Part shown: piece by piece, positions 7,481-63,914 of the stretch
Layout of the letters: each line of letters opens with the position of its first letter
How positions within the stretch are numbered: the stretch's first letter is position 1
Notes under the pieces: model-generated
Databases searched by the model: none
What the model was told of the DNA's origin: nothing
The model's input: only the letters and a program-made list of their open reading frames with translations
Origin: a bacterium
GTDB taxonomy: Bacteria > Patescibacteriota > Minisyncoccia > Phycocordibacterales > Phycocordibacteraceae
NCBI GenBank assembly: GCA_021784815.1
Contig: JAJYHK010000019.1
Location: 48,726-112,725, forward strand
Length of the DNA: 64,000 nt
Direction of reading: 5' to 3'
Translations under genes and position numbers: made by a program

Positions 7481-7490
7481 CCGAGGCTTC

Positions 7491-9476
7491 ATGCTTGCTT
7501 TGCTCTACGGCGGTGCGTTTCTCCTGTCCGGCGCGGCTGCACTCGCGGCTATGGCGCTTGCGCGCAGCGCCCATCAGTCGGCTGTGACGCATGCGCTGCT
7601 TATTCTTTCCGGACTGTTCGGTCTTGCCGCGTCGGTCGGGTACTGTATAGAGCTTGCGCACGGCGTCGTGCGCGTTGTGCCGGTCTACGCTACCGCGCTC
7701 TTCGCCTTCTTCGTTACGCCGCTCTCGGGGTTTTTCCTCGCGCTCGTCTTTCTGGGCGTGACGCTCACCTCTTGGTACGCGCTTGGGTACCTGCCGCGCT
7801 ACCATACTCACTATACGCTCCCGTGGCTCGATTTCGCGACGAGCCTGTTCGTGCTCGGCATGGTTGGTACGCTCATGGCCGGGCAGCCGTTCGCGTTTTT
7901 GATTGCATGGGAGCTCATGTCCGTCGCGGCGTATTTTCTCATCATCGCGGACGGATCTCGGGAGTCGCTCACCGCCGGCTTTCGGTACCTGCTCATGGCG
8001 CAGCTCGGGTTTCTCGCGCTGCTCGTGGGCCTCTTGCTGCTTGCAGGCGGCGACCCGTTCGCTTCCTGGGCCGCAGTGGCGCATGCGGCCGCGGCGCTGC
8101 CGCCGTCGGCGCGCTTGGGCGCGTTCCTTCTCCTGCTTGTCGGCTTCGGATCGAAGGCCGGGCTCGTGCCGCTGCATCAGTGGCTGCCGGCGGCGCATCC
8201 GCAGGCACCGAGCCACAGCTCGGCGTTGCTCTCCGGCGTTATGCTCAAGGTTGCGCTCTACGGGTTCATTCTTTCAGTCGGATTATTGCCGGCTGTGCCG
8301 TTCTCATGGGCGATGCTTGTTATCGTGCTCGGCCTTGCTTCCGCCTTCTTCGGCGTGCTGCATGCAGTCGTCGAGAACGATGCTAAGCGCATGCTTGCCT
8401 GGAGCAGCATCGAACACATGGGACTGCTCTTTACGGGCGTCGGCCTCCTACTCGCTTTGCCGAACCTTCCGGTCGGCGCGGACGCCGCAGCGCTTACTGC
8501 GGCCCTTACCGGCTTCGTCATACTGCACGCCCTTAACCACTCGCTCTTTAAGTCGGGCCTTTTCATGGCAACCGGCGCGGTCGTCGCGCAAACCCACACG
8601 CGCGATCTTGACCGCCTTGGCGGCCTTGCGCAGCGATGGCCGCTTTTCTCGGGCGCATTCCTGGCACTGGCGCTATCAGCGGCGGCGCTGCCGCCGACGG
8701 GCACGTTTTTCGGGGAATGGCTCTTGTTCCAGCCACTCGCGATAGGGTTCCGGAGCGCCGCGCCGGCCTCGTCTCTGGGCGCGGCGCTCGTGCTTGCGGT
8801 TGTGGCGCTTGTGGGCGGGCTTGCGGTGTTTGCGTTCGTTAAGCTCTTCAGCGTCATGTTTCTCGGGCGTCCGCGCAGCAGCGCGGCGGAGCAGGCCGGA
8901 GAAATGCCGCTTTTGCTTACGCTCCCGCCACTCGCTGCTGCGGTGCTTGTTTCTCTTTCAGGCTTGCTGCTCTTTCCGCTGCTTGCGCAACCGGAGCGCG
9001 TGCGCCTGCTGGGATTGCCGTTCGCAAGCGCGGTGCTGCCCGGTGCCGCAATGAGCTCCTGGGGCGTCGTTTTTGCGCTCTTGGGTAGCGCCGCCGCCGC
9101 CGCCGCGTTCTATCGTGCCTTCGCGCGGCGGACAATCAGAATTACCGAGACCTGGGACTGCGGCGCGCCGCTTACCGCGCGTATGCAATACACGGCGACC
9201 GGCTTTTCAGCGCCGATACGGTTCTTCTTCCGGGCGCTTGTGCTGTCGAAAAAGACCTTGGTCGTTGAACCGGTCGTGGTAACGAATCCATGGATAGCGA
9301 AGCGCCGGCTGTCTTGGGCGACCGAATCATTCTGGGAGGCGGGACTATACCGCCCGGTCGGTCGGGCGGCGATCGCCATCTCCGCGTCGGTTCGCCGTCT
9401 CCAGAATGGGGCAGTGCAGTTTTATTTGGCGCTCGTGTTTGCTGCGCTCGTTGGCGTCATTCTGTTCGCGCTATGA
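7491..9476 (+). CDS. HyfB / NuoL / MrpA-like antiporter-type membrane subunit
   Basis: About 660 aa polytopic protein with the complex-I antiporter-like signature (WLPAAHPQAPSHSSALLSGVMLK..SSIEHMGLL). ATG at 7491 chosen over the in-frame extension from 7428 that overlaps the preceding gene. Confidence 0.85.
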   Translation: MLALLYGGAFLLSGAAALAAMALARSAHQSAVTHALLILSGLFGLAASVGYCIELAHGVVRVVPVYATALFAFFVTPLSGFFLALVFLGVTLTSWYALGYLPRYHTHYTLPWLDFATSLFVLGMVGTLMAGQPFAFLIAWELMSVAAYFLIIADGSRESLTAGFRYLLMAQLGFLALLVGLLLLAGGDPFASWAAVAHAAAALPPSARLGAFLLLLVGFGSKAGLVPLHQWLPAAHPQAPSHSSALLSGVMLKVALYGFILSVGLLPAVPFSWAMLVIVLGLASAFFGVLHAVVENDAKRMLAWSSIEHMGLLFTGVGLLLALPNLPVGADAAALTAALTGFVILHALNHSLFKSGLFMATGAVVAQTHTRDLDRLGGLAQRWPLFSGAFLALALSAAALPPTGTFFGEWLLFQPLAIGFRSAAPASSLGAALVLAVVALVGGLAVFAFVKLFSVMFLGRPRSSAAEQAGEMPLLLTLPPLAAAVLVSLSGLLLFPLLAQPERVRLLGLPFASAVLPGAAMSSWGVVFALLGSAAAAAAFYRAFARRTIRITETWDCGAPLTARMQYTATGFSAPIRFFFRALVLSKKTLVVEPVVVTNPWIAKRRLSWATESFWEAGLYRPVGRAAIAISASVRRLQNGAVQFYLALVFAALVGVILFAL

Positions 9477-10414
9477 ACGGCATGCTTTTCATTCTCCAGG
9501 GCGTGGTTACGCTTATGCTTGCGCCGCTCATGGTAGGGCTCGTGCGCTTCTTCAAGGCACGTTTCCAGAACCGCCGCGGCGCGGTGCCCTGGTTGCCGTA
9601 CGTATCGCTCTGGTCGCTCTTTGCGAAGGACATGACGATCACGCGTTATAGCTCATGGGTGTTCCGATTCGTGCCGTTCGTGCTCGCAAGTATCGCTCTC
9701 GTGCTTGCCTTCGTAGTGCCGACCTTCGCGTATGGCGTCGTGCCGCCGTTCCTTTCGAACCTCTTTCTGGTAGGCGGGCTATTCGCGTTTGGGTCCGCTT
9801 GGCTCGTGCTGGGCGGTATGGACACGGCAAGCGCGTTCGGCAACATGGGCGCCAGCCGCGAAATGACGCTTGCGGCGCTCGTCGAGCCGGCGCTCTACGT
9901 AAGCCTAGCGACCATCGCGTTTGCGGCCGGGTCCTGGAGCCTCGACGGTATGCTTGCGCACGAGGCGGGCCTTTCCTGGCATGGCGGGGCATTGCCCTTG
10001 TCGTTTGCGCTCGGCGCGCTTCTGCTCGTTGCGCTTACCGAAAACGCCCGGTATCCGGTCGATAACCCGGCGACGCATCTCGAACTCACCATGGTGCACG
10101 AAGCGATGGTGCTTGAGTACTCGGGGCCGTACTTAGCGTTGCTTGAGTACGCGGCGGCGGTGAAGCTGACCGTGACCATGCTGTTTCTCTTTGCGCTCGC
10201 GCTGCCGTTCGGTCTTATGCATGTAGGCGCCTCGCCGCTCGCCGTTGTATTCTGGTACATCGTTCGCTTCGTCTTCGCATCGTTCATTGTTGCGTTCATT
10301 GAATCGGTGATCGTGAAGATGCGTTTTTATCGGATGCAGGAATACCTCTCGCTTGCGCTGTTCGTGGCGCTGGCGGGCCTGGTGCTTGTGCTTATGCAGC
10401 AGTTCTCGTTCTAG
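9473..10414 (+). CDS. HycD / HyfC / NuoH-like membrane subunit
   Basis: N-terminus MNGMLFILQGVVTLMLAPLMVGLVRFFKARFQNRRGAVP resembles the E. coli HycD N-terminus as recalled (ARLHNRRGP in a hydrophobic context). ATGA overlap with the upstream gene stop. Confidence 0.8.
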   Translation: MNGMLFILQGVVTLMLAPLMVGLVRFFKARFQNRRGAVPWLPYVSLWSLFAKDMTITRYSSWVFRFVPFVLASIALVLAFVVPTFAYGVVPPFLSNLFLVGGLFAFGSAWLVLGGMDTASAFGNMGASREMTLAALVEPALYVSLATIAFAAGSWSLDGMLAHEAGLSWHGGALPLSFALGALLLVALTENARYPVDNPATHLELTMVHEAMVLEYSGPYLALLEYAAAVKLTVTMLFLFALALPFGLMHVGASPLAVVFWYIVRFVFASFIVAFIESVIVKMRFYRMQEYLSLALFVALAGLVLVLMQQFSF

Positions 10415-10417
10415 CGT

Positions 10418-11065
10418 ATGGGTCCGGTATTCCTCAGCGGCGCGTGTCTTGTTGGGGCGGTGCTCGCAGCGTTCCTTATGGCGAGCCGCATGCGCCTTGC
10501 ATCGCTTGCATCGCTCTATGCGATACAGGCCATGCTGCTCTCAGCCGCAGTCGCGTTCTATGCGGTTGCGCATGGCGACGCGTCGGCGTATGCGGTCGCC
10601 GGCCTCACGTTCGTGCTCAAAGCGCTCCTCATTCCGTACTGGTTCGTGCGCATCGTGCGCGCGCACGGCTCAAGTGAGCGGCTCGTGGCGTATGCTCGTC
10701 CGACGACGCTCTCGTTTGGCGCGCTTTTCTCCGTTTCGTTTGCCGGACTGATCGCGCAGGAATTGGCGCGCGCGTCGAGCGCGCCGTACGTAGCGCTCGC
10801 TTCTTCGATCGCGCTCATCTTGATCGGCTTCCTTATGCTCGTTTCGCGGCGCGACATGATCGGCCTAGGCTTCGGCTTTTTGGTCGTGGAGGCTGGCGTC
10901 TTTGCGCTCGGGCTCGCGCTCACGGGCGGCATGCCGCTGTTCGTGGAGCTCGGCGCGCTCTTCGACCTCTCAATCTTCTTCGTGCTTCTGGTGGCATTCG
11001 CACGGCGGGCGCAACGGGAGCACGCGTCGCTCGCGACGGATTATTTGCGTGAACTCATCGGCTGA
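10418..11065 (+). CDS. HyfE-like small polytopic membrane subunit
   Basis: 215 aa. Colinear similarity to E. coli HyfE (216 aa): YAIQAMLLS, VLKALLIPYWF, GLGFGFLVVEAGVFALGLAL. Confidence 0.7.
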   Translation: MGPVFLSGACLVGAVLAAFLMASRMRLASLASLYAIQAMLLSAAVAFYAVAHGDASAYAVAGLTFVLKALLIPYWFVRIVRAHGSSERLVAYARPTTLSFGALFSVSFAGLIAQELARASSAPYVALASSIALILIGFLMLVSRRDMIGLGFGFLVVEAGVFALGLALTGGMPLFVELGALFDLSIFFVLLVAFARRAQREHASLATDYLRELIG

Positions 11066-11068
11066 CCT

Positions 11069-12538
11069 ATGACGGCAACCCTTCTCGTGTGTGCGTCGTT
11101 CGTTTCTGCGTTTTTACCGCTCCGTACGCGGTCAGTGCGCGCTGCGGTGCTCATGAGCCTTGCGGGGAGTACGATTGTGCTCGCCCTCGGACTCGCCCTT
11201 GCGGTGCCGGCACTAGTCGCGTCCGCCTCGGTCGCCTCCGGCTTGTGGTATCTCGACCCGCTTTCGGGGCTGTTGGTCCTCCTTATCGTTTTCGTCGGAT
11301 GGACCGCGGCGATGGCGAGCGTCTCGTACCTGTCGGCCGAAGCGCGCGAGAGCGTCGTGAGCGCGCAGCAGGTACGGCACTACGGGGCGCTCTCCGCGCT
11401 TTTCGTATGCTCGATGCTCGTAGTCGTGCTCGCAAACAATCTCGGTCTCATGTGGGTAGCGCTCGAGGCCACGACGCTTACCACGGCGCTCCTCGTCGCG
11501 TTTTACGCGCGTCCCGGCTCGCTTGAGGCGGCTTGGAAGTACCTCATCCTGTGCTCGACCGGCATCGTGCTGGGGCTTATGGGCGTGATGCTCGTGTATG
11601 CGGCGGCCACGTCCGCGATCGGCGAAAGTGGTTTCGCGGTGTTGAGCTATGCAGCGCTCCTGCACAGTGCAGCCCTTCCGCCCGCGCTCATGCGGCTTGC
11701 GTTCGCGTTCGTGCTCGTCGGGTTCGGCACGAAGGTGGGGCTCGTCCCGATGCATGCGTGGCTGCCGGACGCGCACTCAAGCGCGCCGTCGCCGGTTTCC
11801 GGCATGCTCTCCGGCATCCTGCTCACGACGGCGCTGTTTGCGGTGATGCGCTACAAGACGCTCGTCGACCATGCGCTCGGGAGCGCAGGATACACCGAGA
11901 CGCTTCTGCTCGTCTTTGGCGCATTGACGACCCTCGTCTCCGCGCTCTTTATCCTCGTGCAGCTCGACTACAAGCGACTCTTGGCGTACTCGAGCATCGA
12001 GCACATGGGGCTGACGACCTTCGCGCTCGGCCTGGGCGCTCCGGGCGCGGTGGTTGCAGTCATACACCTCGTCGGCCACGCGCTCGCGAAGCCGCTACTC
12101 TTCTATGGGGCGGGGAACGTGCTTGTGCGCTTCAAGAGCACCAAGTTCGATCGAGTGTGGGGCGTGGCGCGCGTATTGCCTTACACTGCCGGGCTCTTTG
12201 TCTTCGGTTTGCTCGCGCTTCTCGCCGTGCCGCCCTCGCCGCTCTTTGTAAGCGAGCTCCTCCTTGCGGCGCAAGCGGTAGCCGCGCACGCATACCTGTT
12301 TGCCGTCATCGCGGTTGCGCTCGTGCTCGTGTTTGCGGGGTTTGCGCGGGCGTTCTTCCCGTTCCTCTTCAGCCGGGATGAGGCGCCTATCCAGGCGCAC
12401 GAGCTCACGAACGAACGCTGGAACAGCGCGCACACCGCGATGACACTGCATGCGGTGGTGCTGACGGGGTTCGGCGTAGCGCTGTTTGCCGGCTATGCGC
12501 TGCCGTTTATCATGCATATCGCCGCGGCGCTTGCGTAG
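11069..12538 (+). CDS. HyfF / NuoN / NuoM-like antiporter-type membrane subunit
   Basis: 489 aa. WLPDAHSSAPSPVSGMLSGILL and SSIEHMGL motifs of the PF00361 family. Confidence 0.85.
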   Translation: MTATLLVCASFVSAFLPLRTRSVRAAVLMSLAGSTIVLALGLALAVPALVASASVASGLWYLDPLSGLLVLLIVFVGWTAAMASVSYLSAEARESVVSAQQVRHYGALSALFVCSMLVVVLANNLGLMWVALEATTLTTALLVAFYARPGSLEAAWKYLILCSTGIVLGLMGVMLVYAAATSAIGESGFAVLSYAALLHSAALPPALMRLAFAFVLVGFGTKVGLVPMHAWLPDAHSSAPSPVSGMLSGILLTTALFAVMRYKTLVDHALGSAGYTETLLLVFGALTTLVSALFILVQLDYKRLLAYSSIEHMGLTTFALGLGAPGAVVAVIHLVGHALAKPLLFYGAGNVLVRFKSTKFDRVWGVARVLPYTAGLFVFGLLALLAVPPSPLFVSELLLAAQAVAAHAYLFAVIAVALVLVFAGFARAFFPFLFSRDEAPIQAHELTNERWNSAHTAMTLHAVVLTGFGVALFAGYALPFIMHIAAALA

Positions 12539-12542
12539 GCTT

Positions 12543-14081
12543 ATGAACATCGACCAGCTTTGTTCTGAACTGGGGCTTGTGCGCGCCGAGAGCGGAATCG
12601 TCGAGGTGCTGCGCGAGGAACTGGCGCGACAGGCGGAGGCGCTCGTGGTCAAAGAAGCGCCGCTTGTGTTTATGTATGCGACCGATGAGCGCGCGCGGGG
12701 CTCGGGGTTTGCGGTGCATGCCGTCTTCTCGGTCGCCGGAGACGGGTTCCTTACGCTGCGCGCAGCGCTCCCGGCCGATGCGCCCGCATACCCGGCGCTC
12801 ACGCGCTCTATCATGGCCGCCCACTGGTACGAGCGGCTCATGGGAGACCAGTTTGGCATCCTTGCTGAAGGGCATCCGGACTGGCGCCGCCTCATGCATC
12901 ACGAGAACATTCCGGCGGGAACGCATCCTTTGCGTAAAGACTTTGCCTGGAACACCAGGCTGCCGCATGCGCAGGAGCCGCACCTCATGCATCAGGTCGA
13001 AGGACAGGGCGTGTACGAGATTCCGGTGGGGCCCATTCATGCAGGTATCATTGAACCGGGGCATTTCCGATTTAATGTGCGTGGCGAGCGCATTCTGACG
13101 CTCGAGGGCAAACTGTTCTTTACGCACAAGGGCGTCGAGAAGCTCGTGGAGGGGAAGACGCCGGAGGCGGCGCTGCCGTTTGTCGAACGCATCTCGGGCG
13201 ACATGGCGGTAGGGCATACGCTCGCGTATGCGCAAGCGGTCGAGCGTGCCGTCGGCTGCGCGGTCAGCCCGCGCACGCGGTGGTTGCGCGTGGTCTGGAA
13301 CGAGCTTGAGCGGTTCACCGCGCATATCTTTGACATCGGCAACATGGCGGGGAACGGTACCGGTTTTACCTTCATGGCCGCGCAAGGCTTCCGAATGCTC
13401 GAAGAGCTGCGCCGTCTGCACGAAGCGCTCGTCGGACACCGCTATCTGCGCGGCGCGATCACGCTCGGCGGCGCGCATGATCTCGATGCACTGGCGCAGC
13501 AGCAGCTAAGCGCGCAGCTTAGGAAGACGGAGCGCGAGCTCGAAACGATTCTCGATGTCGCTTTCCGGAGCGACGGGCTCATGGAGCGCTTCGAGACGAC
13601 CGGCGTCCTCTCGCCCGACGCCGCGCGCGCATACGGCGCGCGCGGCGTCGGCGCGCGCGGGTCCGGCATAGCGACCGATTTGCGCAGCGAGCATCCGTAC
13701 GCCGCATATGCCGAGCTGCCGTTCTTGGTGGTGATGGAGGCGGCCGGCGACGTCGCGGCGCGTTTCAGGGTGCGCGCGCGCGAAGCGGCGCAGGCTCTCG
13801 CACTCATACGCGCGGCGCTCGACTCGCTGCCCGAGGGCTCGGCGCAGGTCGCGCTCGTTCCTAAGCAAGGCAGCGCGCTTGGTTGGGCCGAAAGCTTTCG
13901 CGGCGCGGTGATCGACTTCGTGCAGCTCGACGAGCGCGGTACGATCGATCGGCTCGCGGTTTCCGACCCGTCGTTCATGAACTGGCCGCTTTTCGGCGAG
14001 CTCGGCCCGGGCAACATCGTGCCGGACTTTCCGCTCTGTAATAAAAGCCTCAATCTCTCCTATTCGGGTACGGATTTATAA
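12543..14081 (+). CDS. Fused NuoC-NuoD / hydrogenase large-subunit-like protein (HyfG/HycE-like) lacking NiFe-binding cysteines
   Basis: N-terminal NuoC-like domain, then a NuoD/large-subunit core (GPIHAGIIEPGHFRF..ERISGDMAVGH..). The L1 motif RxCGxCxxxH reads RISGDMAVGH. The C-terminal DPCxxCxxH/R reads NLSYSGTDL. ATG at 12543 lies 5 nt after the upstream stop. Confidence 0.8.
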   Translation: MNIDQLCSELGLVRAESGIVEVLREELARQAEALVVKEAPLVFMYATDERARGSGFAVHAVFSVAGDGFLTLRAALPADAPAYPALTRSIMAAHWYERLMGDQFGILAEGHPDWRRLMHHENIPAGTHPLRKDFAWNTRLPHAQEPHLMHQVEGQGVYEIPVGPIHAGIIEPGHFRFNVRGERILTLEGKLFFTHKGVEKLVEGKTPEAALPFVERISGDMAVGHTLAYAQAVERAVGCAVSPRTRWLRVVWNELERFTAHIFDIGNMAGNGTGFTFMAAQGFRMLEELRRLHEALVGHRYLRGAITLGGAHDLDALAQQQLSAQLRKTERELETILDVAFRSDGLMERFETTGVLSPDAARAYGARGVGARGSGIATDLRSEHPYAAYAELPFLVVMEAAGDVAARFRVRAREAAQALALIRAALDSLPEGSAQVALVPKQGSALGWAESFRGAVIDFVQLDERGTIDRLAVSDPSFMNWPLFGELGPGNIVPDFPLCNKSLNLSYSGTDL

Positions 14082-24706: not shown

Positions 24707-27682
24707 ATGAAGAACATCGCTCTCGCTCCTGTCTGGGCCCGCGGCATCGCGCTCGTACTCGCGCTCGCGCTCGCGACCGGGCCAGCTGGTAGTGTGCTCG
24801 CAGCGGAACATTCGGACACTTCAAGTTCAAGTACTCCGTCGACCGCATCCTCAAGTCCTCTGGCAGGCACATCTAAGCCGGAGAATACCGCTTCTTCGAC
24901 GCCGCTTACTGCCGCCGTCGTGACCGGCGGTGCCGCGGCAACCGCGCAGACGCACAATGAAGTGAATGCAGCGGTCGTCCAAACTGCAAGCGCCACGCCA
25001 TCGGCGACCGGCAACACGACTGCGGTCTCCGTAGGGGCGCCCTCGACCCTAGCGGCGTCTTCGACGGGGAACGGCGATGCGTCATCGACTTCGGACGCTG
25101 CCTCGTCGTCACCACCGTCGCTCTCGCAAGGGACGACGACCATAACGACGCAAAACATCGCAAGCACGACCGCAACGACGACCGCGCATGCGAGTACGGG
25201 GACCAACGGCGCTCAAAACGCCGACGGCAATGCGTTCGTTGCGACCGGCGATGCTTATGCATCAGCCGATGCGATCAACGTGATCAATACGAACATTATC
25301 GACTCGACCGGCCTCTTGTATTTCAAAAACCTTTTCTCATCGCTCGGCATTAACCTGGGCGATCTCGACCTTTCGTATTTCACCAGTTCATCGACTCCCG
25401 TATGCTCCGCGGGCTTGTGCGATCCGCTCTCGCTGTATGCGCAGAATGCGGCGACCGCGACGAATGCGGTTGAGGCAACCGCGCAAACGGGCGGCAACGC
25501 CGCCTCGAGCACCAAGGGCTCGTCGACTATCGATACCGGCAATGCGTATGCGTCGGGCAATGCGATTAACATCATTAACTCAAATTTCATCCGGTCGAAT
25601 TACCTGCTCATCGCGATGAACGATTTCGGGAACCTTTCGGGCGATATCGTCCTTCCGGACGCCGCCTTCTTCCAGAAATTGCTCGCGCACCGTGCCGGCA
25701 CCACAGGCGACCTTTCGCTCTCTGCAAGCAATGACGGCACGGTCGCCAACTCGACTGCGGCGGTGGCGCAGACGGGCAACAACGCCGCATCTTCGACTGC
25801 GTCGGGGAGTAGCCTCGTTTCTACGGGCGCGGCGCTCTCGAGCGCGACGAGCCTGAACCAGGTAAACGCGAATTTCGTGGGCGGCACGACGGTATTTCTG
25901 CTTTTCCGTATTTGGGGCAACTGGACCGGAACGGTGCGCGGTCTGCCGGCGGGTATGGCCTGGCAGCAAACGCCCGCCGGGCTTGAGATCACGAACGCCG
26001 AGGGCGCGCCGGTTCCGGGCACAGCGCTCGCGCCGCCCGGACCGCTCTCGGTCGACGCGACTAGTACGGCGGTGCTCACGAACCGCGTGCGCGTATATGC
26101 GCTCACGGGCAACAACCAAGCGCGGGCGGCTGACGGCACCTCCACGATAGCGACCGGCAACGCCTATGCGAGCGCGAATAGCGTCAATGTCGTCAACACC
26201 AACCTGGTCGGCCATAACTGGATCTATGCGATCTTCAACATTTTCGGCGACATGACCGGCGACATTGCCTTCGGACAGCCGGATCTCTGGGTCGGGGCCG
26301 CGGCGCAGGCAGATAACCCGACCTTGCCGGGCACGACGGTGCCGTTCACGTTCACGGTCGTCAACAGGGGAACCGCAACGGCGACGGACGTGCGGCTGAC
26401 GACGAGCTTTCTTTCCCACATGCTCCGCTTCGCGACGGGTTCCTCGACCGCGACCGCCGACACGTGGGACCTTGGCTCGCTCGCGCCAGGGCAGACCAGG
26501 GAAGTGACCGTCTCGGCGGTGACCGGGGAGGTGCCGCAAGGCGGCTCGGTCGCGGTGCCGGTGACCGCGGTAGTGTCGAGCGTTGAACATGACGCTAACC
26601 CTTCTGACAACGCCGACAGCCTCACCATCGTCGTCTCAAATCCGATCGCGCCCGGGAGCAGGGGACCGAGCTTCAGCTCCGATCCGAAGCTTTCCGTGCT
26701 GCCGCAGGTCGGCGCGCTGTCGAGCACCGCGCCCGCCGTGCTCTCGTACGCCGCGCTCGTTGCGAACAATGGCGGGACTGCCTTTGATGCCGTCGCCACC
26801 GACGTCATCCGTAACGCCAAGGGCGCGGTCGTGAGCCGTCAATCCTGGAACCTCGGCAACCTCGCGTATAACGACGAGCTTCGGATAGCGTATAAGGCGG
26901 CCTTTGCGTCGACGACCGAGCTTGGGCAGTACACGAACGTCATGACGGTCACCGGACACATGCATTATCCGGACGGTCTCGGGTCGGTGCCGTTTGCACC
27001 GGTATCGGCGACCACCACAATGACGATCCTTCCACCGCTCCAGGCACCGGTCGCGACCGTGCAGGCGCAGTCGTGCGCGCCGTATCTCACCGCGTACCTT
27101 ACGCCGGGCGGCGCGAATGATCCGGCGCAGGTGCGGAAACTGCAGTCGTTCTTGATCGGCGAGAGACTCGGTAACGGCGCCTTGGTAACGGGCGCCTTCG
27201 ATGCGGCAACTGCGGCCGCGGTGAAGCGCTTCCAAACAAAATACGCAGCGAACGTGCTCGAGCCTTGGGGCTACCGTAAGCCGACCGGAGACGTATACTA
27301 CACGACCGAGCTCCAGATCAACGCGCTTGCCTGCGCGGGAAAGGGTACGTTCGCACTCACTCAAGCGCAGCGGGAAGAGATCGATGCGACGCGGACGATC
27401 ATCGCGCAGCTGCGCGCACAAGCGGCGCTCGCAGAAGCTGCTCCTGCTCCGGTGTCTTCAGGTGGGGTCTCGGCAGGCGCTGTGCCCGTGCACACGGTCT
27501 CTGCTAAGGAGCCAGCCGCGTCGAGTCCCGATCTGGCACTCCCGCCGGGGATGGAGGTGGGTGTCAGCACGACGTCGCCGCGCGCGTCTTGGTTCGCAGG
27601 TCTGACGCGGACCCCGTCAATCGTCGCCGCGTCGGTCGCAAATGCATACCGTGCGCTCCTCTCTACCTTCGGTATGCATTAA
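24707..27682 (+). CDS. large cell-surface protein: signal peptide, S/T-rich linker, four ~45-aa 'TGNAYASxNxINxxNxN' repeats, DUF11-like beta domain, C-terminal peptidoglycan-binding domain
   Basis: GAGGA Shine-Dalgarno 8 nt upstream. Repeats visible in the translation. PG_binding_1-like C-terminal segment (GANDPAQVRKLQSFLIGERLGNGALVTGAFDAATAAAVKRFQ). Confidence 0.7.
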   Translation: MKNIALAPVWARGIALVLALALATGPAGSVLAAEHSDTSSSSTPSTASSSPLAGTSKPENTASSTPLTAAVVTGGAAATAQTHNEVNAAVVQTASATPSATGNTTAVSVGAPSTLAASSTGNGDASSTSDAASSSPPSLSQGTTTITTQNIASTTATTTAHASTGTNGAQNADGNAFVATGDAYASADAINVINTNIIDSTGLLYFKNLFSSLGINLGDLDLSYFTSSSTPVCSAGLCDPLSLYAQNAATATNAVEATAQTGGNAASSTKGSSTIDTGNAYASGNAINIINSNFIRSNYLLIAMNDFGNLSGDIVLPDAAFFQKLLAHRAGTTGDLSLSASNDGTVANSTAAVAQTGNNAASSTASGSSLVSTGAALSSATSLNQVNANFVGGTTVFLLFRIWGNWTGTVRGLPAGMAWQQTPAGLEITNAEGAPVPGTALAPPGPLSVDATSTAVLTNRVRVYALTGNNQARAADGTSTIATGNAYASANSVNVVNTNLVGHNWIYAIFNIFGDMTGDIAFGQPDLWVGAAAQADNPTLPGTTVPFTFTVVNRGTATATDVRLTTSFLSHMLRFATGSSTATADTWDLGSLAPGQTREVTVSAVTGEVPQGGSVAVPVTAVVSSVEHDANPSDNADSLTIVVSNPIAPGSRGPSFSSDPKLSVLPQVGALSSTAPAVLSYAALVANNGGTAFDAVATDVIRNAKGAVVSRQSWNLGNLAYNDELRIAYKAAFASTTELGQYTNVMTVTGHMHYPDGLGSVPFAPVSATTTMTILPPLQAPVATVQAQSCAPYLTAYLTPGGANDPAQVRKLQSFLIGERLGNGALVTGAFDAATAAAVKRFQTKYAANVLEPWGYRKPTGDVYYTTELQINALACAGKGTFALTQAQREEIDATRTIIAQLRAQAALAEAAPAPVSSGGVSAGAVPVHTVSAKEPAASSPDLALPPGMEVGVSTTSPRASWFAGLTRTPSIVAASVANAYRALLSTFGMH

Positions 27683-53172: not shown

Positions 53173-54150
53173 CTAAACGAAGGCAGGGACGTACCGTATC
53201 GGAGCGTGCACCGTTGGCGGCCGTGCGTCGAGTGCCATGCCTGCGCAGAGGACGGAGAGGATGACGAGCGAGAAAAGGAAGACGCGCTTCGCCCATGTGG
53301 CGTCATCAGTCCCGCGGAAACCGCGCAGCGAAAGCGCGATCCATCCGATGCCCAGGACGATTGCCGTGAGGCCGTATGCTATGCCGGTATAGCCGAAGGG
53401 CCAAAGCAGCACGGAGACGATCGCAAAAGCGGAGACGTACAGCACTATCTGTTCTTTTGTCTTGCGCACGCTTTTAACAATGGGCCAGACAGGAATCTTC
53501 GCAGCCGCATAGTCGTCGCGGCGGAAAAGCGCGATCGCGAAGAAATGCGGCATCTGCCAGAGGCAGAGCATAACAAAGAGAATGAGCGCCGCGAGATCAA
53601 ATCGCCCGGTGACGGCGCAGTAGCCGACAACGGGCGGCATCGCGCCGGCAATGCTGCCGAGGTGAGTCGCGTAGGGAGTGCGTCGTTTGGAAAGGAGCGT
53701 ATAGAGGATGACATACGTAAAGAGGCCGAAGAGCGCCATCGTAGTCGCAAGGGGCGTTGTGCCGCGCGCAAGGATGAGGGTGCCGGCGAGGCCAAGGAAT
53801 GTAGCGTAGACGAGCGACGCGCGCGGCGCGATCGCGCCGCGCGGCAGCGGCCGCTCCTGCGTGCGCAGCATGAGACGATCGATGTCCCGATCGAGGTAAT
53901 TGTTAAAGACGCATCCGCTCGCAACTACGAGAGAGAGACCCGCAAGCATCGCCGCAAGCGTTGGGAGCATGAGCGCGCCGTGCGAGGCGAGGAAGAATCC
54001 GCCGAGCGCGGAGATGGCGTTCCCGTAGACGATGCCGGGCTTCGCGAGCTCGTAGTAGGCGCGGAGAGTAGAAACAGCGGTAGAGTGCGAGAACGCGCTC
54101 GGCGGGGTACCGGGGACGGGCTTCGATTGCGCAAATGAGCGGCTTTGCAT
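53173..54150 (-). CDS. cyoE: protoheme IX farnesyltransferase (heme O synthase)
   Basis: UbiA-family. NYLDRDID and the second Asp-rich motif. Confidence 0.9.
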   Translation of the reverse strand: MQSRSFAQSKPVPGTPPSAFSHSTAVSTLRAYYELAKPGIVYGNAISALGGFFLASHGALMLPTLAAMLAGLSLVVASGCVFNNYLDRDIDRLMLRTQERPLPRGAIAPRASLVYATFLGLAGTLILARGTTPLATTMALFGLFTYVILYTLLSKRRTPYATHLGSIAGAMPPVVGYCAVTGRFDLAALILFVMLCLWQMPHFFAIALFRRDDYAAAKIPVWPIVKSVRKTKEQIVLYVSAFAIVSVLLWPFGYTGIAYGLTAIVLGIGWIALSLRGFRGTDDATWAKRVFLFSLVILSVLCAGMALDARPPTVHAPIRYVPAFV

Positions 54151-54152
54151 AC

Positions 54153-54503
54153 CTACATCGAATCCTGACTCTGGGTGTACTGGAGCATGCGAGTCGGAGT
54201 CGGCATCATGCGCGCATTGAGGTTGTACATGATCCAGAGCGAACCGACGACCACGATACCCACGATGACGAGGGTGAGCGCGAGTGCGAGCTGGTTGAGT
54301 TTGTTGCCGCGCTCGCCAAGATGGAGGAACAGCGCAAGCTGGATGAAAAGCTGCACGAGCGCAAGCGCCACGAGTGCCGCAAGGCCGGTGCCGTGGGCTA
54401 CCGGGTGCGCCGCGACGAGCCAGTACGCGGCAAGGGTGCAGACGAGCGAACCGAGGAATCCGAGCACATAGCGCCCCGGGGATGTCTCAGAGGAAGCATT
54501 CAT
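54153..54503 (-). CDS. cyoD: cytochrome o quinol oxidase subunit IV
   Basis: 116 aa, three TM, CyoD-like. Confidence 0.7.
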   Translation of the reverse strand: MNASSETSPGRYVLGFLGSLVCTLAAYWLVAAHPVAHGTGLAALVALALVQLFIQLALFLHLGERGNKLNQLALALTLVIVGIVVVGSLWIMYNLNARMMPTPTRMLQYTQSQDSM

Positions 54504-55096
54504 ATGAAGGGGAAGAGGTACACGATAGTGAAGATGAGTACCCAGATGATATCGAGGAAGTGCCAGAAAAGGGCGAGCAGGGTAAGCCGGCGCACGTTGG
54601 TATCCGAGAGGCCGCGGAACGCGACCTGTACAAGGAGTACCAGCATCCAGAGCGAGCCGAGCGCCACGTGGAGTCCGTGCGTGCCGACGAGCGTGAAGTA
54701 GGCGGAGAGGAATCCGCTCCTCGAGGGGCCGTTGCCTGCCGCGACAAGGCCAGCGAACTCGTGGATTTCGAGCCCGAGGAAAGAGAGACTGAGTAGGAGC
54801 GTCACCGCAAACCAGGCGATCGTTTCGCGCGCGCGATCACGGCGTGCCGCGAGGATGCCTAGGCCCGCGGTAAAGGAGCTGGTGAGCAGGATAAGTGTCT
54901 CGGCAAGCACGTAGGGGAGGCTGAAGAGACTGCGCGCGTCTGGACCGCCGAAGGTGTTCGTGTGCAGTACCGCATATGTCGCGAACAGGCTTGCGAAAAT
55001 GAGGCAATCGCTCATCAGGTACAACCAGAAGCCGAACACGGTTACGTCTTGCGTGGCGTATGCTTCGTGCGTGAGGGCGAGGGAGCGGTCGGTCAT
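54500..55096 (-). CDS. cyoC: cytochrome o quinol oxidase subunit III
   Basis: 198 aa, five TM, CyoC-like. Confidence 0.85.
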   Translation of the reverse strand: MTDRSLALTHEAYATQDVTVFGFWLYLMSDCLIFASLFATYAVLHTNTFGGPDARSLFSLPYVLAETLILLTSSFTAGLGILAARRDRARETIAWFAVTLLLSLSFLGLEIHEFAGLVAAGNGPSRSGFLSAYFTLVGTHGLHVALGSLWMLVLLVQVAFRGLSDTNVRRLTLLALFWHFLDIIWVLIFTIVYLFPFI

Positions 55097-55099
55097 AGG

Positions 55100-57052
55100 T
55101 CAGGCAGAATGCGCCGCATCGAGAGCGGCTACGCGCGCGGCGGGAATGACGTACTCTGTGTCTTCCATAAGCGAACGCATGACAAGAAAGACGAGGAACG
55201 CGAGGGCAGCAAGTGCCGCAAGCCACCAGATGTGCCAGATCACGGCAAACCCGAAGAAGAACGCGGTGCCCGCGAGGTAGATGCCCATTGGAGTGTTTTT
55301 CGGCAGCACGATATCTTCGTACGCTCCGGGGGCGAGGCTCTCGCCGGTGCGCTTTGCCTCCCAGTAAGCGTCGCGGCTTGAGATTTTCGGCGTCTTGGCG
55401 AAGTTGTAGAACGGTGCGGGCGAAGGAACCGACCACTCGAGCGTGCGGCCGTTCCAGGGGTCCGCGGCGTCCGCAGTGGTGCGCGCGCGATCTCGAATGC
55501 TCACGAAGATTTGCATGAGCTGGCTTACGAACCCAAGTACGATGATGCAGACGCCGATCCCGGCCATGATGAAGAGCGGCTGCCAGCCGAGCCCTGCCGG
55601 ATAGTGGTCGAGCCGGCGCGTCGCACCCATGAGCCCGAGTACATAGAGGGGAATGAAGGCGACCATGAATCCAACCGTCCAGCCCCAAAACGCGCGCGCA
55701 CCCCATTTTTCATCCAACCGGAAGCCGAAGATTTTCGGCATCCAGTACGTGATCGCCGCGAAATCGCCGAAGAGCACGCCACTCACGATCATGGTGTGGA
55801 AGTGGGCGACAAGGAAGAGCGAGTTGTGGAGCTCGAAGTCCGCAGGCGGCACGGCCATAAGGACGCCTGCCATGCCGCCGATGGTGAAGAGCGCAACGAA
55901 GCCGAGGAACCAGAGCATCGGCGTGGTGAAGAGTATGCGGCCGCGATACATGGTAAAAATCCAGTTGAAAATCTTCACCCCCGTAGGAATCGCGATGATC
56001 ATGGTCATGATACCGAAGAACGCGTTCACGTCAGCACCGGCGCCCATGGTGAAGAAATGGTGCAGCCAGACGATAAACGAGAAGACGGTGATCGCCATGG
56101 TTGCGAGCACCATCGAGGGGTAGCCAAAGAGCCGCTTCTGCGAAAAAACCGCCACGACCTCGGAAAACACGCCGAAGGCAGGCAGGACGAGGACGTATAC
56201 CTCGGGGTGGCCCCAGGTCCAGATGAGGTTCACATACATCATCATGTTGCCTCCGCCGCCCGCGGTGAAAAAGTGCATGCCGAGGTATCGGTCGAGCGTG
56301 AGCATGCCGAGGGTCGCGGTGAGGACGGGGAAGGCGAAGACGACGAGGAGCATGCTTCCGAGGACCGTCCAGACAAAAATCGGCATGCGCATGAGCGTCA
56401 TCCCCGGGCAGCGCTTCTTGAAGATGGTGGTGATAAAGTTTATGCCCGAAAGGAGGGAACCAATGCCGGCGATTTGTACGGCCCAGATGTAGTAATCAAC
56501 GCCGACGCCCGGGCTATAGCGGAGCTCGGAGAGCGGCGGGTAGGCGAGCCAGCCGGCAGTCGAGAACTCGCCCACGACGAGCGAGAGCATCATGAGCGCC
56601 GCACCGGACACGAAGAGCCAGAAGGAGAGGGAGTTGAGGAAGGGGAAGGCGACATCTCGGGCGCCGATCTGCAGCGGCAGGACAACGTTAATGAGGCCGA
56701 GCATGAGCGGCATGGCCACGAAGAAGATCATAATGACGCCGTGGCCCGTAAACACCTGCTGGAAATGCTGGGGCGGCAGGTAGCCCCCGCCGCCGGCCGC
56801 GAGCGCCTGCTGGAGCCGCATCATAATAGCATCGATGCCGCCCCGTACGAGCATGACGAGTGCCACGACGATGTACATGACCCCGATCTTCTTCGCGTCG
56901 AGCGAGGTGAGCCACTCATTCCAGAGCCAGCTCCATTTCCTAAAGTAGGTGAGGGCGCCGAGCACAGCGAGGGTGCCGATGACGATGAAGATCTGCGCCC
57001 CAAGCACGATGGGTCCCTGTTCGACAGCGGCGATGGTGAGGCGGCCAAACAT
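55100..57052 (-). CDS. cyoB: cytochrome o quinol oxidase subunit I (heme-copper oxidase catalytic subunit)
   Basis: 650 aa. The haem/CuB His-ligand motifs are inferred from the family and overall similarity; they were not located in the translation. Confidence 0.93.
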
Positions 57053-57055
57053 ACG

Positions 57056-58033
57056 CTACGGGCGCATCGGCATTACGGGCGCGCCGCTTGCAGGCGGAGT
57101 CATAAACCGCATGACGATTTCAGCATATAAACGCGAGTTGGTCACGCGGAAAACGGTGGCGGGGTTGTGCACGCTCGGCTGCGCAAGCTGCGTGTATGCC
57201 GCAAAGGAAAGCGTGTTCGGCGAACGTTGTGCTTGCGAGACCCATGCGGCAAAGTCGTTTGTGGTCATTGAGCGGACAGGGAAGTGCATGCTCGAAAACC
57301 CCGCTCCGCTTAGGTTCGACGAGAATCCTTCGTACGTGCCGGTTGCATCAGCCATGAGGTGTAGCTGGGTGATCATACCCGGCATAGTCATTTCCTGACC
57401 GCCGAGCTGCGGAATCCAGAAGGCGTTCATGGGCGCATCGCTCGTGAGCTTGAAGGCGATCGGCGTCTGCTCCGGGATCGCGAGATAGTTCATCGTCGCG
57501 ATGCCTTGCGCGGGGTATATGAAAAGCCATTTCCAATCGAGCGACACGACCTCGACGGTAAGCGGCGACATAGGTGAATCAATAGGTCGGAAGGGGTCGA
57601 GCGCGTGTGCGCTCTGCCACGCGACGACTGCAAGCGCGGCGACCACGATCATGGGTACCGCCCACCAGATACCCTCCTCGATGCGGTTGTGTTCCCAGCT
57701 CGGGCGGTACTGTGCCCGCGTATTGCTTGCTCGGTAGTGCCAGGCGATACCGAAGGTGAGCGCAAAAACCGGCACCACCACGATAAGCATAAGGAGCGCC
57801 GCCTTGATCATGAGCGCCTGTTCGCGCTTCGCGATAACGCCTTGCGGATCGAGCAGGCCGACGGCATGCCCATGGGTAAGGGAAAGGGCAATAGCGGTGA
57901 TAGCTGCCGCTAGGATGAGCACGGAAGGGAAGACGTACTTTGGATTCACGCTTCGCTCATTATCAGTCGCGCGGAGCAAAATGCAATGAATCGCTGAGAG
58001 ATACGGGGGAAAAGGAGGGGGGTGGACATCCAC
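57056..58033 (-). CDS. cyoA: cytochrome o quinol oxidase subunit II (no CuA ligands)
   Basis: Colinear with E. coli CyoA (EVVSLDWKWLFIYPAQGIATMNYLAIP..FKLTSDAPMNAFWIPQLGGQ). Lacks the CuA Cys/His, so a quinol oxidase. Confidence 0.88.
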   Translation of the reverse strand: MDVHPPPFPPYLSAIHCILLRATDNERSVNPKYVFPSVLILAAAITAIALSLTHGHAVGLLDPQGVIAKREQALMIKAALLMLIVVVPVFALTFGIAWHYRASNTRAQYRPSWEHNRIEEGIWWAVPMIVVAALAVVAWQSAHALDPFRPIDSPMSPLTVEVVSLDWKWLFIYPAQGIATMNYLAIPEQTPIAFKLTSDAPMNAFWIPQLGGQEMTMPGMITQLHLMADATGTYEGFSSNLSGAGFSSMHFPVRSMTTNDFAAWVSQAQRSPNTLSFAAYTQLAQPSVHNPATVFRVTNSRLYAEIVMRFMTPPASGAPVMPMRP

Positions 58034-60303: not shown

Positions 60304-60639
60304 ATGACAACTCGGAAATTCCAGCGTACCAAAGAAGACTTCGCTTGCGAACAGTGCGGGTCCTTTGTGCGCGGGAGCGGCTACACGAACCACTGTCCGC
60401 AGTGTTTGTGGAGCAAGCATGTTGATGTGAATCCCGGCGATCGTCAGGCGGCATGTCGGGGACTCATGGAACCGATGAGCGTTGAGTATAAGAGCGGAGA
60501 GTACATCATGCTCCATCGCTGCGTCTCGTGCGGCGTTGAGAAACGGAACAGGGCGGCGCAGAATGATGGATTCGACGCGATGCTTAAACTCTCATGCCGC
60601 GCGGCCAAGCGAGCAGGCGTTTCGCTTAAGGCGGGTTAG
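60304..60639 (+). CDS. RNHCP-domain zinc-finger protein
   Basis: CEQCG...YTNHCPQCLWSKH...CVSCG: RNHCP signature. 111 aa. Confidence 0.7.
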   Translation: MTTRKFQRTKEDFACEQCGSFVRGSGYTNHCPQCLWSKHVDVNPGDRQAACRGLMEPMSVEYKSGEYIMLHRCVSCGVEKRNRAAQNDGFDAMLKLSCRAAKRAGVSLKAG

Positions 60640-61723: not shown

Positions 61724-62356
61724 ATGCATATGACTCGCCAACGATATGTACTTCTTTCGGTCGCGGCCGCGCTCGCGGTCGCGGGTGTCACCGTAGCGCA
61801 AGTCGGATCGGCCCAAACGACCGGTCCGCTCTCGTGTACAACGAACACACCAACCGTGAGCGTCAATCAGACCGCGGTTTTTACCGCTACAGGAGGAAAC
61901 GGCGCGTATACCTGGTCGGGCGACAACCTCAATGTGTCTAACCCGGTAGGCGCTCAATTTTCCGCAAGCTATCCGGCTACGGGCACTTACATCATCCACG
62001 TCATGAGCGGCGGTCAACTCGCCGGATGTGCGCTTATAGTTGTATCGAACTCGGCCACGAGCACTGGACTCGTCTGCACGCCTGCGAATCAAACCGTTGC
62101 GCTCGGGAATACGGCGAGTGTTTCTGCTTCGGGCGGCACGGGAGCGTATACCTGGTCGGCGCCCGGGCTCACTATCAATAACCCGTATGGCACGGGTTTC
62201 AATGCGAACTTTGCGACGGCGGGAGTGAAGACGATCAATGTCACCAGCGGAAATGCGACCGCATCCTGCGTCGTCAACGTCGCGGCGGGCGGGGGAACGT
62301 CCGTGACGCCAGGTCTCCCAAATACCGGCGGAGGCTACGGTCGCTGGGGCTCGTAG
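61724..62356 (+). CDS. secreted protein with two Ig-like Cys-pair repeats ending in an LPNTG motif without the usual hydrophobic/charged tail
   Basis: Signal peptide. Two ~75-aa repeats each with C…GAYTWS…C. Ends …TPGLPNTGGGYGRWGS then TAG. Confidence 0.7.
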   Translation: MHMTRQRYVLLSVAAALAVAGVTVAQVGSAQTTGPLSCTTNTPTVSVNQTAVFTATGGNGAYTWSGDNLNVSNPVGAQFSASYPATGTYIIHVMSGGQLAGCALIVVSNSATSTGLVCTPANQTVALGNTASVSASGGTGAYTWSAPGLTINNPYGTGFNANFATAGVKTINVTSGNATASCVVNVAAGGGTSVTPGLPNTGGGYGRWGS

Positions 62357-62365
62357 CGCGCAATC

Positions 62366-62983
62366 ATGCGCGCACCGATGCCTAAACCGATCTCCTGGCA
62401 GGCCGCTCTGTTGCTGCCGTTTCTCGCGGGCCTGTCGGGCATGGCCCTTTCGCTTGCACTGCGTTCTGATGTACAGGCGGCGCCCACGCAGCCTGCCCGT
62501 GATGGCAGCGGAGTCTCGGTGCTGACCCCTACGGAACCCGACCGGCTCATTATTCCGGAGATCGGAATGGATGCGCACGTACAGAGCGTGGGGCTGTCGT
62601 GGACCGGCAATGGCAATCTTGGCGTCCCGACCAACTTCACTGATGTTGCGTGGTATAACCGAGGATCGTTTCCCGGCGCGCCAGGAACCGCCGTCATTGA
62701 CGGGCACCTCGATGGCCGTTACGTTCCGGAGGCCGTATTTTACCGGCTCAGCGAGCTTAAGCCGGGCGATCCGGTGTACGTGAAAGAACGCAATGGACAA
62801 GTGGTCTCTTTCGTGGTGACCGGCAGCGAACGGTTCCCCTACGATGCGCCGGACACGACCGCTGTCTTCACGACTGCCGGGAAGGGGAGCTATCTCAACC
62901 TCATCACCTGTGCGGGCGATTGGATTTCGAGCGCAAAGGAGTACGACCAGCGGGTGGTCGTTTTCACAAGACGAGCTTCTTGA
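62366..62983 (+). CDS. sortase (class E/F-like transpeptidase), N-terminally membrane-anchored
   Basis: TM anchor, catalytic His (VIDGHLDG), TLITCAGDW (TLxTC), conserved Arg (VVVFTRR). In the same frame as the LPNTG gene, separated only by TAG plus 3 codons. Confidence 0.8.
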   Translation: MRAPMPKPISWQAALLLPFLAGLSGMALSLALRSDVQAAPTQPARDGSGVSVLTPTEPDRLIIPEIGMDAHVQSVGLSWTGNGNLGVPTNFTDVAWYNRGSFPGAPGTAVIDGHLDGRYVPEAVFYRLSELKPGDPVYVKERNGQVVSFVVTGSERFPYDAPDTTAVFTTAGKGSYLNLITCAGDWISSAKEYDQRVVVFTRRAS

Positions 62984-63914
62984 CCGATGTCGAGATTGCG
63001 TAGCGGGACGCGCTCATGGACAGGCGCGCGGCGCGCGCGTATCGGTACAGCTCAATGAGCGCCACGCCGATCGGCACCAAGAGGAGCGCGGCCGGGACGC
63101 GCAAATCGGGATGCAGTCCGGAAAGCGCTGGTACCTGGGACGAAAGATAGGGGAGGTACGCGAGCGTGGAGGCAGTGACCACGAGTACGGGCACGTATGC
63201 GCGTCGCGGCACGAAGAACGCAAATAGGGTGGAAATGAAATCGGCGAGGTAGAAGTAACGCTCATGCATGCGTGGCAGGAAGTAAGGAAGGAGGAGGACT
63301 GCAGCGAACGATAGCACGAGCAGCGCGCGCGGCGTAAGCGCTCGGAGACGCCAGACAAGGACCATGATGCCAAACGCGATTACGCCCGCCACGATGATGC
63401 CGAGCCAGAACAGCATGCTTGTAGTCTGGGCCGATAGCCGAAGCGGTTGCGCGAAGGCGAAGATGCTCTGAGCCGAAACGGAGAGGTAGGGGTATTGCCC
63501 CATTTCTTTCAGGTAGATGAGGAGCCAGTACCGCAGGTTGCCGCTCCCAAGCCAGGCGGGGAGCACCGAGAGGATAAATACCGCCGGCGGTACGAATACA
63601 TACCAGCGAGTCTGGCGCCAGCGGAGCAAGTAGCCGACCAGCATAGGTGCAAAAAAGATCGCCTGTATCTTCACGGATAGGGCGACCCCGAACGCACACG
63701 CGGCCCAAAAGGGCGCTCCAGCAAGCAGAGCCCATAGGCTAAAGAGTACGCCGGAGGTGTAAAGAGCGTCGGATTGGCCCCAGAGTGTGCTGTTCATTAT
63801 GACGGTCGGCAAGATAAAGAGTACGGTCGCTGCAAACATGCGCCCCCCTTTGCGCCTCGAGCGCCGGCACGTATCGGAGAATGCGGTATGCGACGAATGC
63901 GTTAGCCGCGTCAA
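62964..63914 (-). CDS. polytopic membrane glycosyltransferase-like protein (GT87/DUF2029-like), N-terminus disrupted by an apparent frameshift
   Basis: Many TM segments. The N-terminal hydrophobic continuation lies in another frame (63739-64000+), with a C6 homopolymer at 63843-63848. Confidence 0.5.
   Translation of the reverse strand: MTRLTHSSHTAFSDTCRRSRRKGGRMFAATVLFILPTVIMNSTLWGQSDALYTSGVLFSLWALLAGAPFWAACAFGVALSVKIQAIFFAPMLVGYLLRWRQTRWYVFVPPAVFILSVLPAWLGSGNLRYWLLIYLKEMGQYPYLSVSAQSIFAFAQPLRLSAQTTSMLFWLGIIVAGVIAFGIMVLVWRLRALTPRALLVLSFAAVLLLPYFLPRMHERYFYLADFISTLFAFFVPRRAYVPVLVVTASTLAYLPYLSSQVPALSGLHPDLRVPAALLLVPIGVALIELYRYARAARLSMSASRYAISTSVKKLVL

Follow-up and report, generated by a model that had tools for sequence, protein, structure and literature searches.

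Cell-wall sorting signals are classically tripartite, consisting of an LPxTG pentapeptide, a hydrophobic segment and a basic tail, and the retention half of the signal is thought to be necessary for capture of the substrate by sortase. Among the enzymes that read such signals, class F sortases have a physiological role that reviews and a 2026 study describe as unknown (PMC13251363, PMC8225981), and papers on the candidate phyla radiation (CPR) list sortases as an enriched family, without further mention (PMC6744442). Here we describe two neighbouring open reading frames (ORFs), ORF A and ORF B, in a 64,000-nucleotide stretch of contig JAJYHK010000019.1 from a member of the Patescibacteriota; we refer to this whole stretch as the window. 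ORF A encodes an LPNTG protein with two immunoglobulin (Ig)-like domains that stops eight residues after its pentapeptide, and ORF B encodes a sortase. Comparison with related loci indicates that the pair is a conserved two-gene substrate–sortase cassette of Paceibacteria/Kaiserbacteria-type Patescibacteria ('Parcubacteria'). We found no description of tail-less LPXTG substrates or of Parcubacteria sortase cassettes in the full-text literature, a coverage that leaves out most subscription journals.

A preliminary description of the locus, made from its sequence alone, reported an LPNTG protein and a sortase in one reading frame on either side of a single TAG, and the sequence and its translation confirmed this layout. 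The start coordinates of both ORFs are 2 mod 3, and a 9-nt spacer follows the TAG (Table 1). The C-terminal end of ORF A is GLPNTGGGYGRWGS (also written TPGLPNTGGGYGRWGS or TSVTPGLPNTGGGYGRWGS), after which the TAG stands, and the N-terminal sequence of ORF B is MRAPMPKPISWQAALLLPFLAGLSGMALSLALRSD. The Ig-repeat protein does, as that description reported, lack both a hydrophobic segment and a basic tail, having only GGYGRWGS after LPNTG. Of the canonical sorting-signal features, the pentapeptide is present (aa 198-202; the surrounding stretch takes the peptide forms PGLPNTGGGYGQ and TPGLPNTGGGYGQ), and both the membrane-spanning segment and the positive C-terminal tail are absent. Because two of the three defining features are missing, ORF A should not be classed as a standard LPXTG anchor protein. 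Searches against NCBIfam gave no LPXTG-anchor match, and neither Pfam nor NCBIfam returned a specific family, the PKD and intimin-like matches all being below threshold. ORF A is the sole LPxTG-ending ORF within the 64-kb window, which has a GC content of 60.6%. Its homologues start at a position matching the ATG at 61730, and public annotation starts the sortase at its second ATG (62378; 201 aa, P0001). A convergent gene for a GT87-family glycosyltransferase (62964-63914, minus strand) shares its last 20 nt with the 3' end of the sortase gene (62964-62983); this overlap and synteny are repeated in the closest relative, locus L002 (6483-6502; substrate 79% and sortase 73% identical), and not in the other loci.

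ORF A contains two mutually similar repeats of about 75 residues each, preceded by a predicted signal peptide whose cleavage and Sec export we infer from the sequence. An AlphaFold2 model computed with 34 homologues as input (predicted confidence, pLDDT, 78) placed a helix at residues 4-25 and showed two beta-sandwich domains, for which the nearest solved folds were the tandem bacterial Ig-like domains of LigA (Big), intimin and the S-layer protein SbsC. The four invariant Cys residues probably form intradomain disulfides. Lipoprotein anchoring through one of them, Cys38, was considered and rejected: the preceding P-L-S is no lipobox, the residue lies beyond the AQ cleavage site, and it is one of four invariant Cys. 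Thr, Ser, Asn, Gly and Ala are strongly represented in the mature protein (61814-62326), which is nearly uncharged: the stretch Q31-T201 has one Asp, one Lys, one His and neither Glu nor Arg. Members of the family carry zero or one Lys. Such a composition could have been selected to keep off-target nucleophiles away from the sortase, or could suit a protein of a coat or S-layer type.

To see how general the short C terminus is, we compared 96 homologues of ORF A from NCBI, JGI, ENA and Logan assemblies that are 36-100% identical over the aligned part, the longest of them 304 aa. All 96 end 4-8 residues past LPxTG, and in 91 the tail is 5-6 residues long, typically GGYGQ, GGYGK or GGFGQ. The pentapeptide is LPNTG in 74 members, LPDTG in 13 and LPATG in 4. 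In an alignment of 34 sequences (A1), P196, G197, P199, T201, G202 and G204 were invariant and L198, N200 and G203 nearly so, and the Pro/Thr-rich linker ahead of the motif varied in both length and sequence. Across the family, the PGLPNTGGG[YF]G motif sits 1-4 residues from the C terminus. Among 32 distinct loci, the motif codons included all synonymous alternatives, with all four in use at the P, G and T positions. Since synonymous codons vary while the residues stay, the constraint lies on the peptide, including positions past the presumed scissile bond, and not on the DNA. We also considered whether GGAGG within the GGGYG codons could be the Shine–Dalgarno sequence of the sortase and rejected this candidate; about 32 nt separate it from the start codon downstream, and the Gly codons of orthologues show free variation. 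A scan of genome contigs found 58 stretches that encode PGLPNTGGG, 15 of which are ORF A relatives; the remaining 43 may be unrelated proteins with the same motif, tail-less or canonical.

The pairing with a sortase was equally constant. We used two samples of loci, one substrate-centred and drawn from reference genomes and exact-protein look-ups (15 loci for frame statistics), the other sortase-centred and drawn from metagenomes (80 loci, 52 with a scorable upstream LPxTG gene, of which 30 were tail-less and 22 had a canonical tail). A sortase lay directly downstream in every genome locus that was long enough (the window, L002, L003, L007-L010 and L012-L020) and, likewise, directly downstream of a tail-less substrate in 30 independent metagenome loci found by the sortase search. 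The genes flanking the cassette differ among loci. These comparisons point to a Patescibacteria family of about 100 tail-less LPxTG proteins in which the membrane-anchoring half of the sorting signal is lost while the dedicated sortase is kept.

ORF B matched Pfam PF04203 (peptidase C60) with 70.9 bits (gathering threshold 26.6; E = 1.1e-19). Its best NCBIfam class was class F sortase (NF033748), with class E next at 27 bits, and homologues are labelled class F sortase in public annotations. We call ORF B class-F-like, class F being clearly the nearest class although its curated cut-off was failed. In an alignment of 20 sortase homologues (A2), the His/Cys/Arg triad was invariant and ORF B looks active. 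The catalytic His had been correctly placed in VIDGHLDG (H114). The Cys motif, given earlier as TLITC, reads LNLITCAGDW, and the Arg assigned to VVVFTRR is instead R196 in DQRVVVF; neither Arg of FTRR is conserved. All aligned sortases keep the N-terminal transmembrane (TM) helix and the (F)SW motif before it, with a positively charged N-flank, features consistent with an N-in/C-out topology that would put the catalytic domain outside. The 120 sortase homologues listed are, without exception, stand-alone proteins of 177-240 aa, each with an N-terminal TM helix of its own. A sequence search of the PDB found no close sortase (phmmer none; by profile only remote class C and other matches, E about 1e-4).

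We consider it likely that ORF A and ORF B are separate genes, transcribed together, and form a dedicated cassette, in which the sortase processes its tail-less substrate onto an envelope amine. ORF A would be exported by Sec via a cleavable signal peptide and, as modelled, would fold outside into two disulfide-braced Ig-like domains, with the variable Pro/Thr-rich linker presenting PGLPNTGGG[YF]G near the C terminus. ORF B would be held by its own N-in/C-out TM helix with His114, Cys182 and Arg196 on the outside, as family knowledge and conservation suggest. Cys182 would then attack the Thr201-Gly202 bond and release a peptide of 6-9 residues (GGGYGRWGS in the window), and the acyl-enzyme would be resolved by an envelope amine, most likely that of a peptidoglycan precursor or stem peptide. 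Membrane retention would presumably be replaced by the invariant motif, which extends to either side of the bond, and by tight operon coupling; confinement in a small envelope space is a further candidate substitute.

Several points weigh against this proposal. In experiments by Schneewind and colleagues from 1992 and 1993, Staphylococcus aureus proteins from which the hydrophobic and charged tail had been removed were reportedly secreted and not anchored. The class F score of ORF B, 118.9 bits, is below the curated cut-off of 166. Furthermore, no sortase residue cleanly separates the partners of tail-less substrates from those of canonical ones, the comparison yielding three weak columns only. 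On the other side, S. aureus SrtA puts exogenous LPETG peptides that lack a hydrophobic domain into the cell wall, although only at 0.1-1 mM (PMC4723074), which makes a tail-less substrate feasible for a sortase.

A possible, if unlikely, outcome is that ORF A is a natural 'sortag', a fully translocated and freely diffusing protein whose only sorting element is PGLPNTGGGYG-x, and that the class-F-like sortase dedicated to it joins it to some acceptor that is not lipid II of the same cell. This acceptor could be a second ORF A molecule, so that a covalent fibre or coat would form, or else a component of the surface layer or the envelope of the host cell colonised by the epibiont. If this were true, sortase pathways would not universally require C-terminal membrane retention, and a physiological role would be found for sortases of class F type. 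We regard as unlikely a reading in which peptidoglycan is not the acceptor and ORF A is instead polymerised by the sortase into a covalent fibre or pilus, or joined to another protein or a component of the surface layer. A small Ig-fold subunit beside its own sortase does resemble pilin–sortase clusters, a substrate free of membrane retention could diffuse to a growing polymer, and mature ORF A is almost free of charged residues. However, the mature part is Lys-free in 23 of the 96 homologues and the common K170 is not invariant, so a Lys-isopeptide pilin mechanism cannot be general. The fold, moreover, is PKD/Big-like, as in PKD/Big_2/S-layer Ig-like tandems, and not CnaA/CnaB, and the locus holds a single sortase and a single subunit. 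The invariant N-terminal Gln had been a candidate for a special nucleophile; AQ sites are common in unrelated canonical substrates too, which weakens that idea and means that this Gln is no special evidence of head-to-tail linkage.

It is distinctly unlikely that the sortase is only a maturation protease that trims the tail by hydrolysis and frees a soluble protein, a GGGYGQ-type peptide or both. Without membrane retention, water could resolve the acyl-enzyme, and the sequence of the released peptide is conserved; but sortases generally favour transpeptidation, and the existence of canonical-tail relatives with the same sortase family implies that anchoring was the ancestral function. We judge it very improbable that LPNTG is vestigial and ORF A merely a secreted protein that is no sortase substrate. 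Although tail-less precursors are reported to escape sortase in classical experiments, synonymous change at the motif is saturated here and its residues are nevertheless invariant, with a hypervariable linker beside it, and the adjacency of the sortase is strictly kept in all sampled loci.

The preliminary description had made most of another idea, that the TM helix of the sortase completes the missing sorting signal, and had listed three possibilities: two genes with an unusual mode of retention, read-through of the TAG, and a recent nonsense mutation that split a fusion. The homologues and their loci favour the first of these and speak against the other two. Read-through or suppression of the TAG would yield a substrate–sortase fusion that uses the sortase helix as the membrane segment of the sorting signal and processes itself at LPNTG. 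In its favour, the two genes are in frame across a single stop in the window and in L007, L008, L016 and L020, the only members of the genome sample to repeat this arrangement, and a hydrophobic helix followed by Arg lies 24 residues past LPNTG. The other junctions do not fit, and different frames in orthologous loci were what the preliminary description had said would refute its idea. L002 has an 8-nt spacer and L003 a 10-nt spacer, both in a different frame; the genes of L009/L010 overlap by 11 nt; L014, L015, L017 and L018 are out of frame; and L012, L013 and L019 are in frame with additional in-frame stops. Overall, frames 0, 1 and 2 are all represented among the genome junctions, the extremes of which are an overlap of 11 nt and a gap of about 39 nt. 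Among the 30 tail-less metagenome cassettes, frames 0/1/2 occurred 11/7/12 times, and the substrate stop was TAA in 16, about half, and TAG in 14. Six of the 30 tail-less metagenome cassettes had a same-frame single-stop junction, as did 6 of the 22 with a canonical tail; such junctions were equally common where the substrate owns a TM tail and a fusion would make no sense. By chance, the same frame without a spacer stop is expected at 1/3 x (61/64)^3, or about 0.29 (a three-codon spacer is stop-free in 87%). Over the 45 orthologous cassettes the frame relation is random, same-frame single-stop junctions occur at chance frequency, and the shared frame across the single TAG in the window is a coincidence.

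Further observations on read-through agreed with those on frame. Neither the 96 homologues of ORF A nor the 120 sortase homologues listed include a fused protein. The window uses TAG as a normal stop, at the end of about one quarter of its long ORFs (cyoA and cyoD among them), and the five tRNAs encoded there (two Ala, two Pro and one Val) hold no suppressor. The predicted orientation of the helix also appears wrong for this role. Three positive charges precede it (the spacer Arg, R2 and K7) and the net charge just after it is zero, as in an N-in signal anchor and not a stop-transfer segment. Whereas the helix of a sorting signal must run from outside to inside, this one would run N-in/C-out; the catalytic domain of a fusion would consequently end up in the cytoplasm, with LPNTG on the outside. 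We therefore hold read-through to be exceedingly improbable. More generally, neighbours that share a frame with one stop between them should not be called fusions without comparative evidence.

We ran a profile search against 1.84 billion representative proteins, in which the Ig-like module of ORF A also turned up in giant Patescibacteria surface proteins, many of which end in [AP]PKTG, a hydrophobic stretch and RK. In nine of these (P0217, P0218, P0224, P0241, P0256, P0259, P0262, P0281 and P0346), the C terminus reads [FV]xAPKTGADT, a hydrophobic stretch and YRKRK..L(I/V)LNN, which looks like a separate sorting signal of canonical architecture, marked by a PKTG motif and by LILNN conserved at its end. 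A small relative, P0326, ends with the canonical signal LPNTGMGGDATNLFLNLGVLLALSGMTTLVLRKRMAK. Another, with one Ig domain and 154 aa, is encoded at locus L021 of Candidatus Kaiserbacteria CG10_49_17 (PFBJ01000006.1, 4019-5117) and ends LPNTGGGGSLFVTFATAFLVLGFIALSVTWGRK; its signal consists of LPNTGGGGS, a TM segment and GRK, and a gene for a 209-aa sortase lies 4 nt downstream. In the sortase-centred sample, the sortases nearest ORF B were mostly paired with tail-less substrates. By contrast, distant sortases (about 49% identity and below) were mostly paired with canonical tails on heterogeneous substrates (22-25 loci), with the two ranges overlapping at about 40-49% identity. Because these distant cassettes keep LPxTG, a TM segment and a basic tail, the tail-less state appears to be a derived character of one substrate family, kept by selection.

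TM-tailed homologues, which the preliminary description had said would suggest a simple local truncation, were found only among distant relatives (L021 and P0326), and all close homologues are tail-less; the truncation is accordingly ancient and conserved, not local. We give virtually no weight to a recent nonsense mutation or local truncation as the cause of the missing TM tail of ORF A or of a split in an ancestral fusion: the tailed L021 and P0326 do show that truncation happened at some time, but each of the 96 homologues, which come from many environments and reach down to about 36% identity, has the short tail, the spacers (11-nt overlap to about 39 nt) are too short for a decayed TM-coding remnant, and the tail residues GG[YF]G are conserved family-wide while their codons vary synonymously, which argues for an ancient truncation held by selection.

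Elsewhere in the window, a complete haem–copper quinol-oxidase-like operon occupies 53173-58033 on the minus strand. Aerobic respiratory genes are unusual in Patescibacteria and have been reported in some Parcubacteria (PMC5220378) and in oxic-adapted CPR (PMC12577380). A Mrp-antiporter/complex-I-like module on the plus strand (7428-14081) resembles an energy-converting hydrogenase or a partial complex I in a reduced genome. Five tRNA genes lie on both strands between 59168 and 60267 (Ala-GGC, Pro-CGG, Val-CAC, Pro-GGG and Ala-CGC). A 991-aa protein with DUF11/CARDB domains (24707-27682, plus strand), which has no LPxTG-type signal, is probably a cell-surface protein.

Table 1. Coordinates of the substrate–sortase cassette and of other features of the window.
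Feature	Coordinates	Strand	Details
ORF A including TAG stop	61724-62356	+	210 aa (translation); secreted protein with two Ig-like domains, putative sortase substrate
ORF A signal peptide	61724-61813	+	aa 1-30, MHMTRQRYVLLSVAAALAVAGVTVAQVGSA|QTT; predicted signal peptidase I site GSA|QT; A30 and Q31 invariant
ORF A Ig/PKD-like domain 1	61823-62044	+	aa ~34-107; invariant Cys38 and Cys102 (alignment, AlphaFold2 model)
ORF A Ig/PKD-like domain 2	62066-62284	+	aa ~115-187; invariant Cys118 and Cys182 (alignment, AlphaFold2 model)
ORF A putative sortase recognition motif	62309-62329	+	P-G-L-P-N-T-G, aa 196-202; predicted scissile bond Thr201|Gly202
ORF A C-terminal tail	62330-62353	+	GGYGRWGS; family consensus GG[YF]G[QKR]; no hydrophobic segment, no basic tail
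ORF A stop and spacer	62354-62365	+	TAG (62354-62356), then 9 nt cgc gca atc (62357-62365)
ORF B	62366-62983	+	205 aa; stand-alone class-F-like sortase; ATG at 62366, stop 62981-62983
ORF B predicted N-terminal signal-anchor TM helix	62396-62461	+	aa ~11-32, WQAALLLPFLAGLSGMALSLAL; preceded by R2 and K7
ORF B catalytic His114	62705-62707	+	IDGHLD; invariant in alignment A2
ORF B catalytic Cys182	62909-62911	+	LITC; invariant in alignment A2
ORF B catalytic Arg196	62951-62953	+	QRVVVF; invariant in alignment A2
Proton_antipo_M subunits, two	7428-9476, 11069-12538	+	
NuoCD-like protein	12486-14081	+	fused 30-kDa and 49-kDa
UbiA/CyoE prenyltransferase	53173-54150	-	
Small CyoD-like subunit	54153-54503	-	
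COX3	54500-55096	-	
COX1	55100-57052	-	650 aa
COX2	57056-58033	-	with COX_ARM motif
RNHCP-domain zinc-ribbon protein	60304-60639		after tRNA cluster

Across about 100 sequence clusters from many environments, the retention half of the signal has been dropped, and the pentapeptide, its flanking motif and a one-to-one sortase have been kept under purifying selection. This contradicts the textbook requirement and offers a natural test case for how sortases find their substrates, with the L021 pair as a natural tailed counterpart to the tail-less cassette. ORF A is also a candidate physiological substrate for a class-F-like sortase, and the cassette offers a way into the cell envelope of Patescibacteria, which is poorly understood. 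Protein ligation, in addition, could benefit from an enzyme that has evolved to act on a minimal soluble tag.

Compared with the paradigm of S. aureus protein A and SrtA, the cassette has a similar N-terminal signal peptide, a C-terminal LPxTG, a Cys transpeptidase predicted to be membrane-anchored and the same His/Cys/Arg triad, but members of the ORF A family end 4-8 residues past LPxTG and the motif is extended to PG-LPNTG-GG[YF]G. With class F sortases (Cutibacterium acnes SrtF; NF033748; SrtF paralogues of Streptomyces and Actinoplanes), ORF B shares its best-scoring class and a presumed LPxTG specificity; it differs in scoring below the cut-off, in coming from Patescibacteria and in its one-to-one pairing with a single tail-less substrate family. 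A specialised sortase beside a single cognate substrate is likewise seen in SrtB–IsdC, in oral streptococcal SrtB–AbpA (PMC4974636) and in the class GN 'marine' sortase and its target, although the substrates of these pairs, unlike ORF A, keep a hydrophobic and charged C-terminal segment. Sortase-assembled Gram-positive pili, built by a class C sortase and pilins, also place a small secreted subunit with several Ig domains beside a sortase, whereas ORF A has no conserved pilin-motif Lys, CnaA/CnaB fold or TM tail and ORF B is not class C. Finally, sortagging with LPETGG tags and the use of exogenous LPETG by SrtA (PMC4723074) resemble the cassette in that a pentapeptide with a few further residues is accepted without membrane retention. 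Those reactions are artificial and inefficient, at 0.1-1 mM substrate, whereas the minimal tag of ORF A is natural and evolutionarily conserved.

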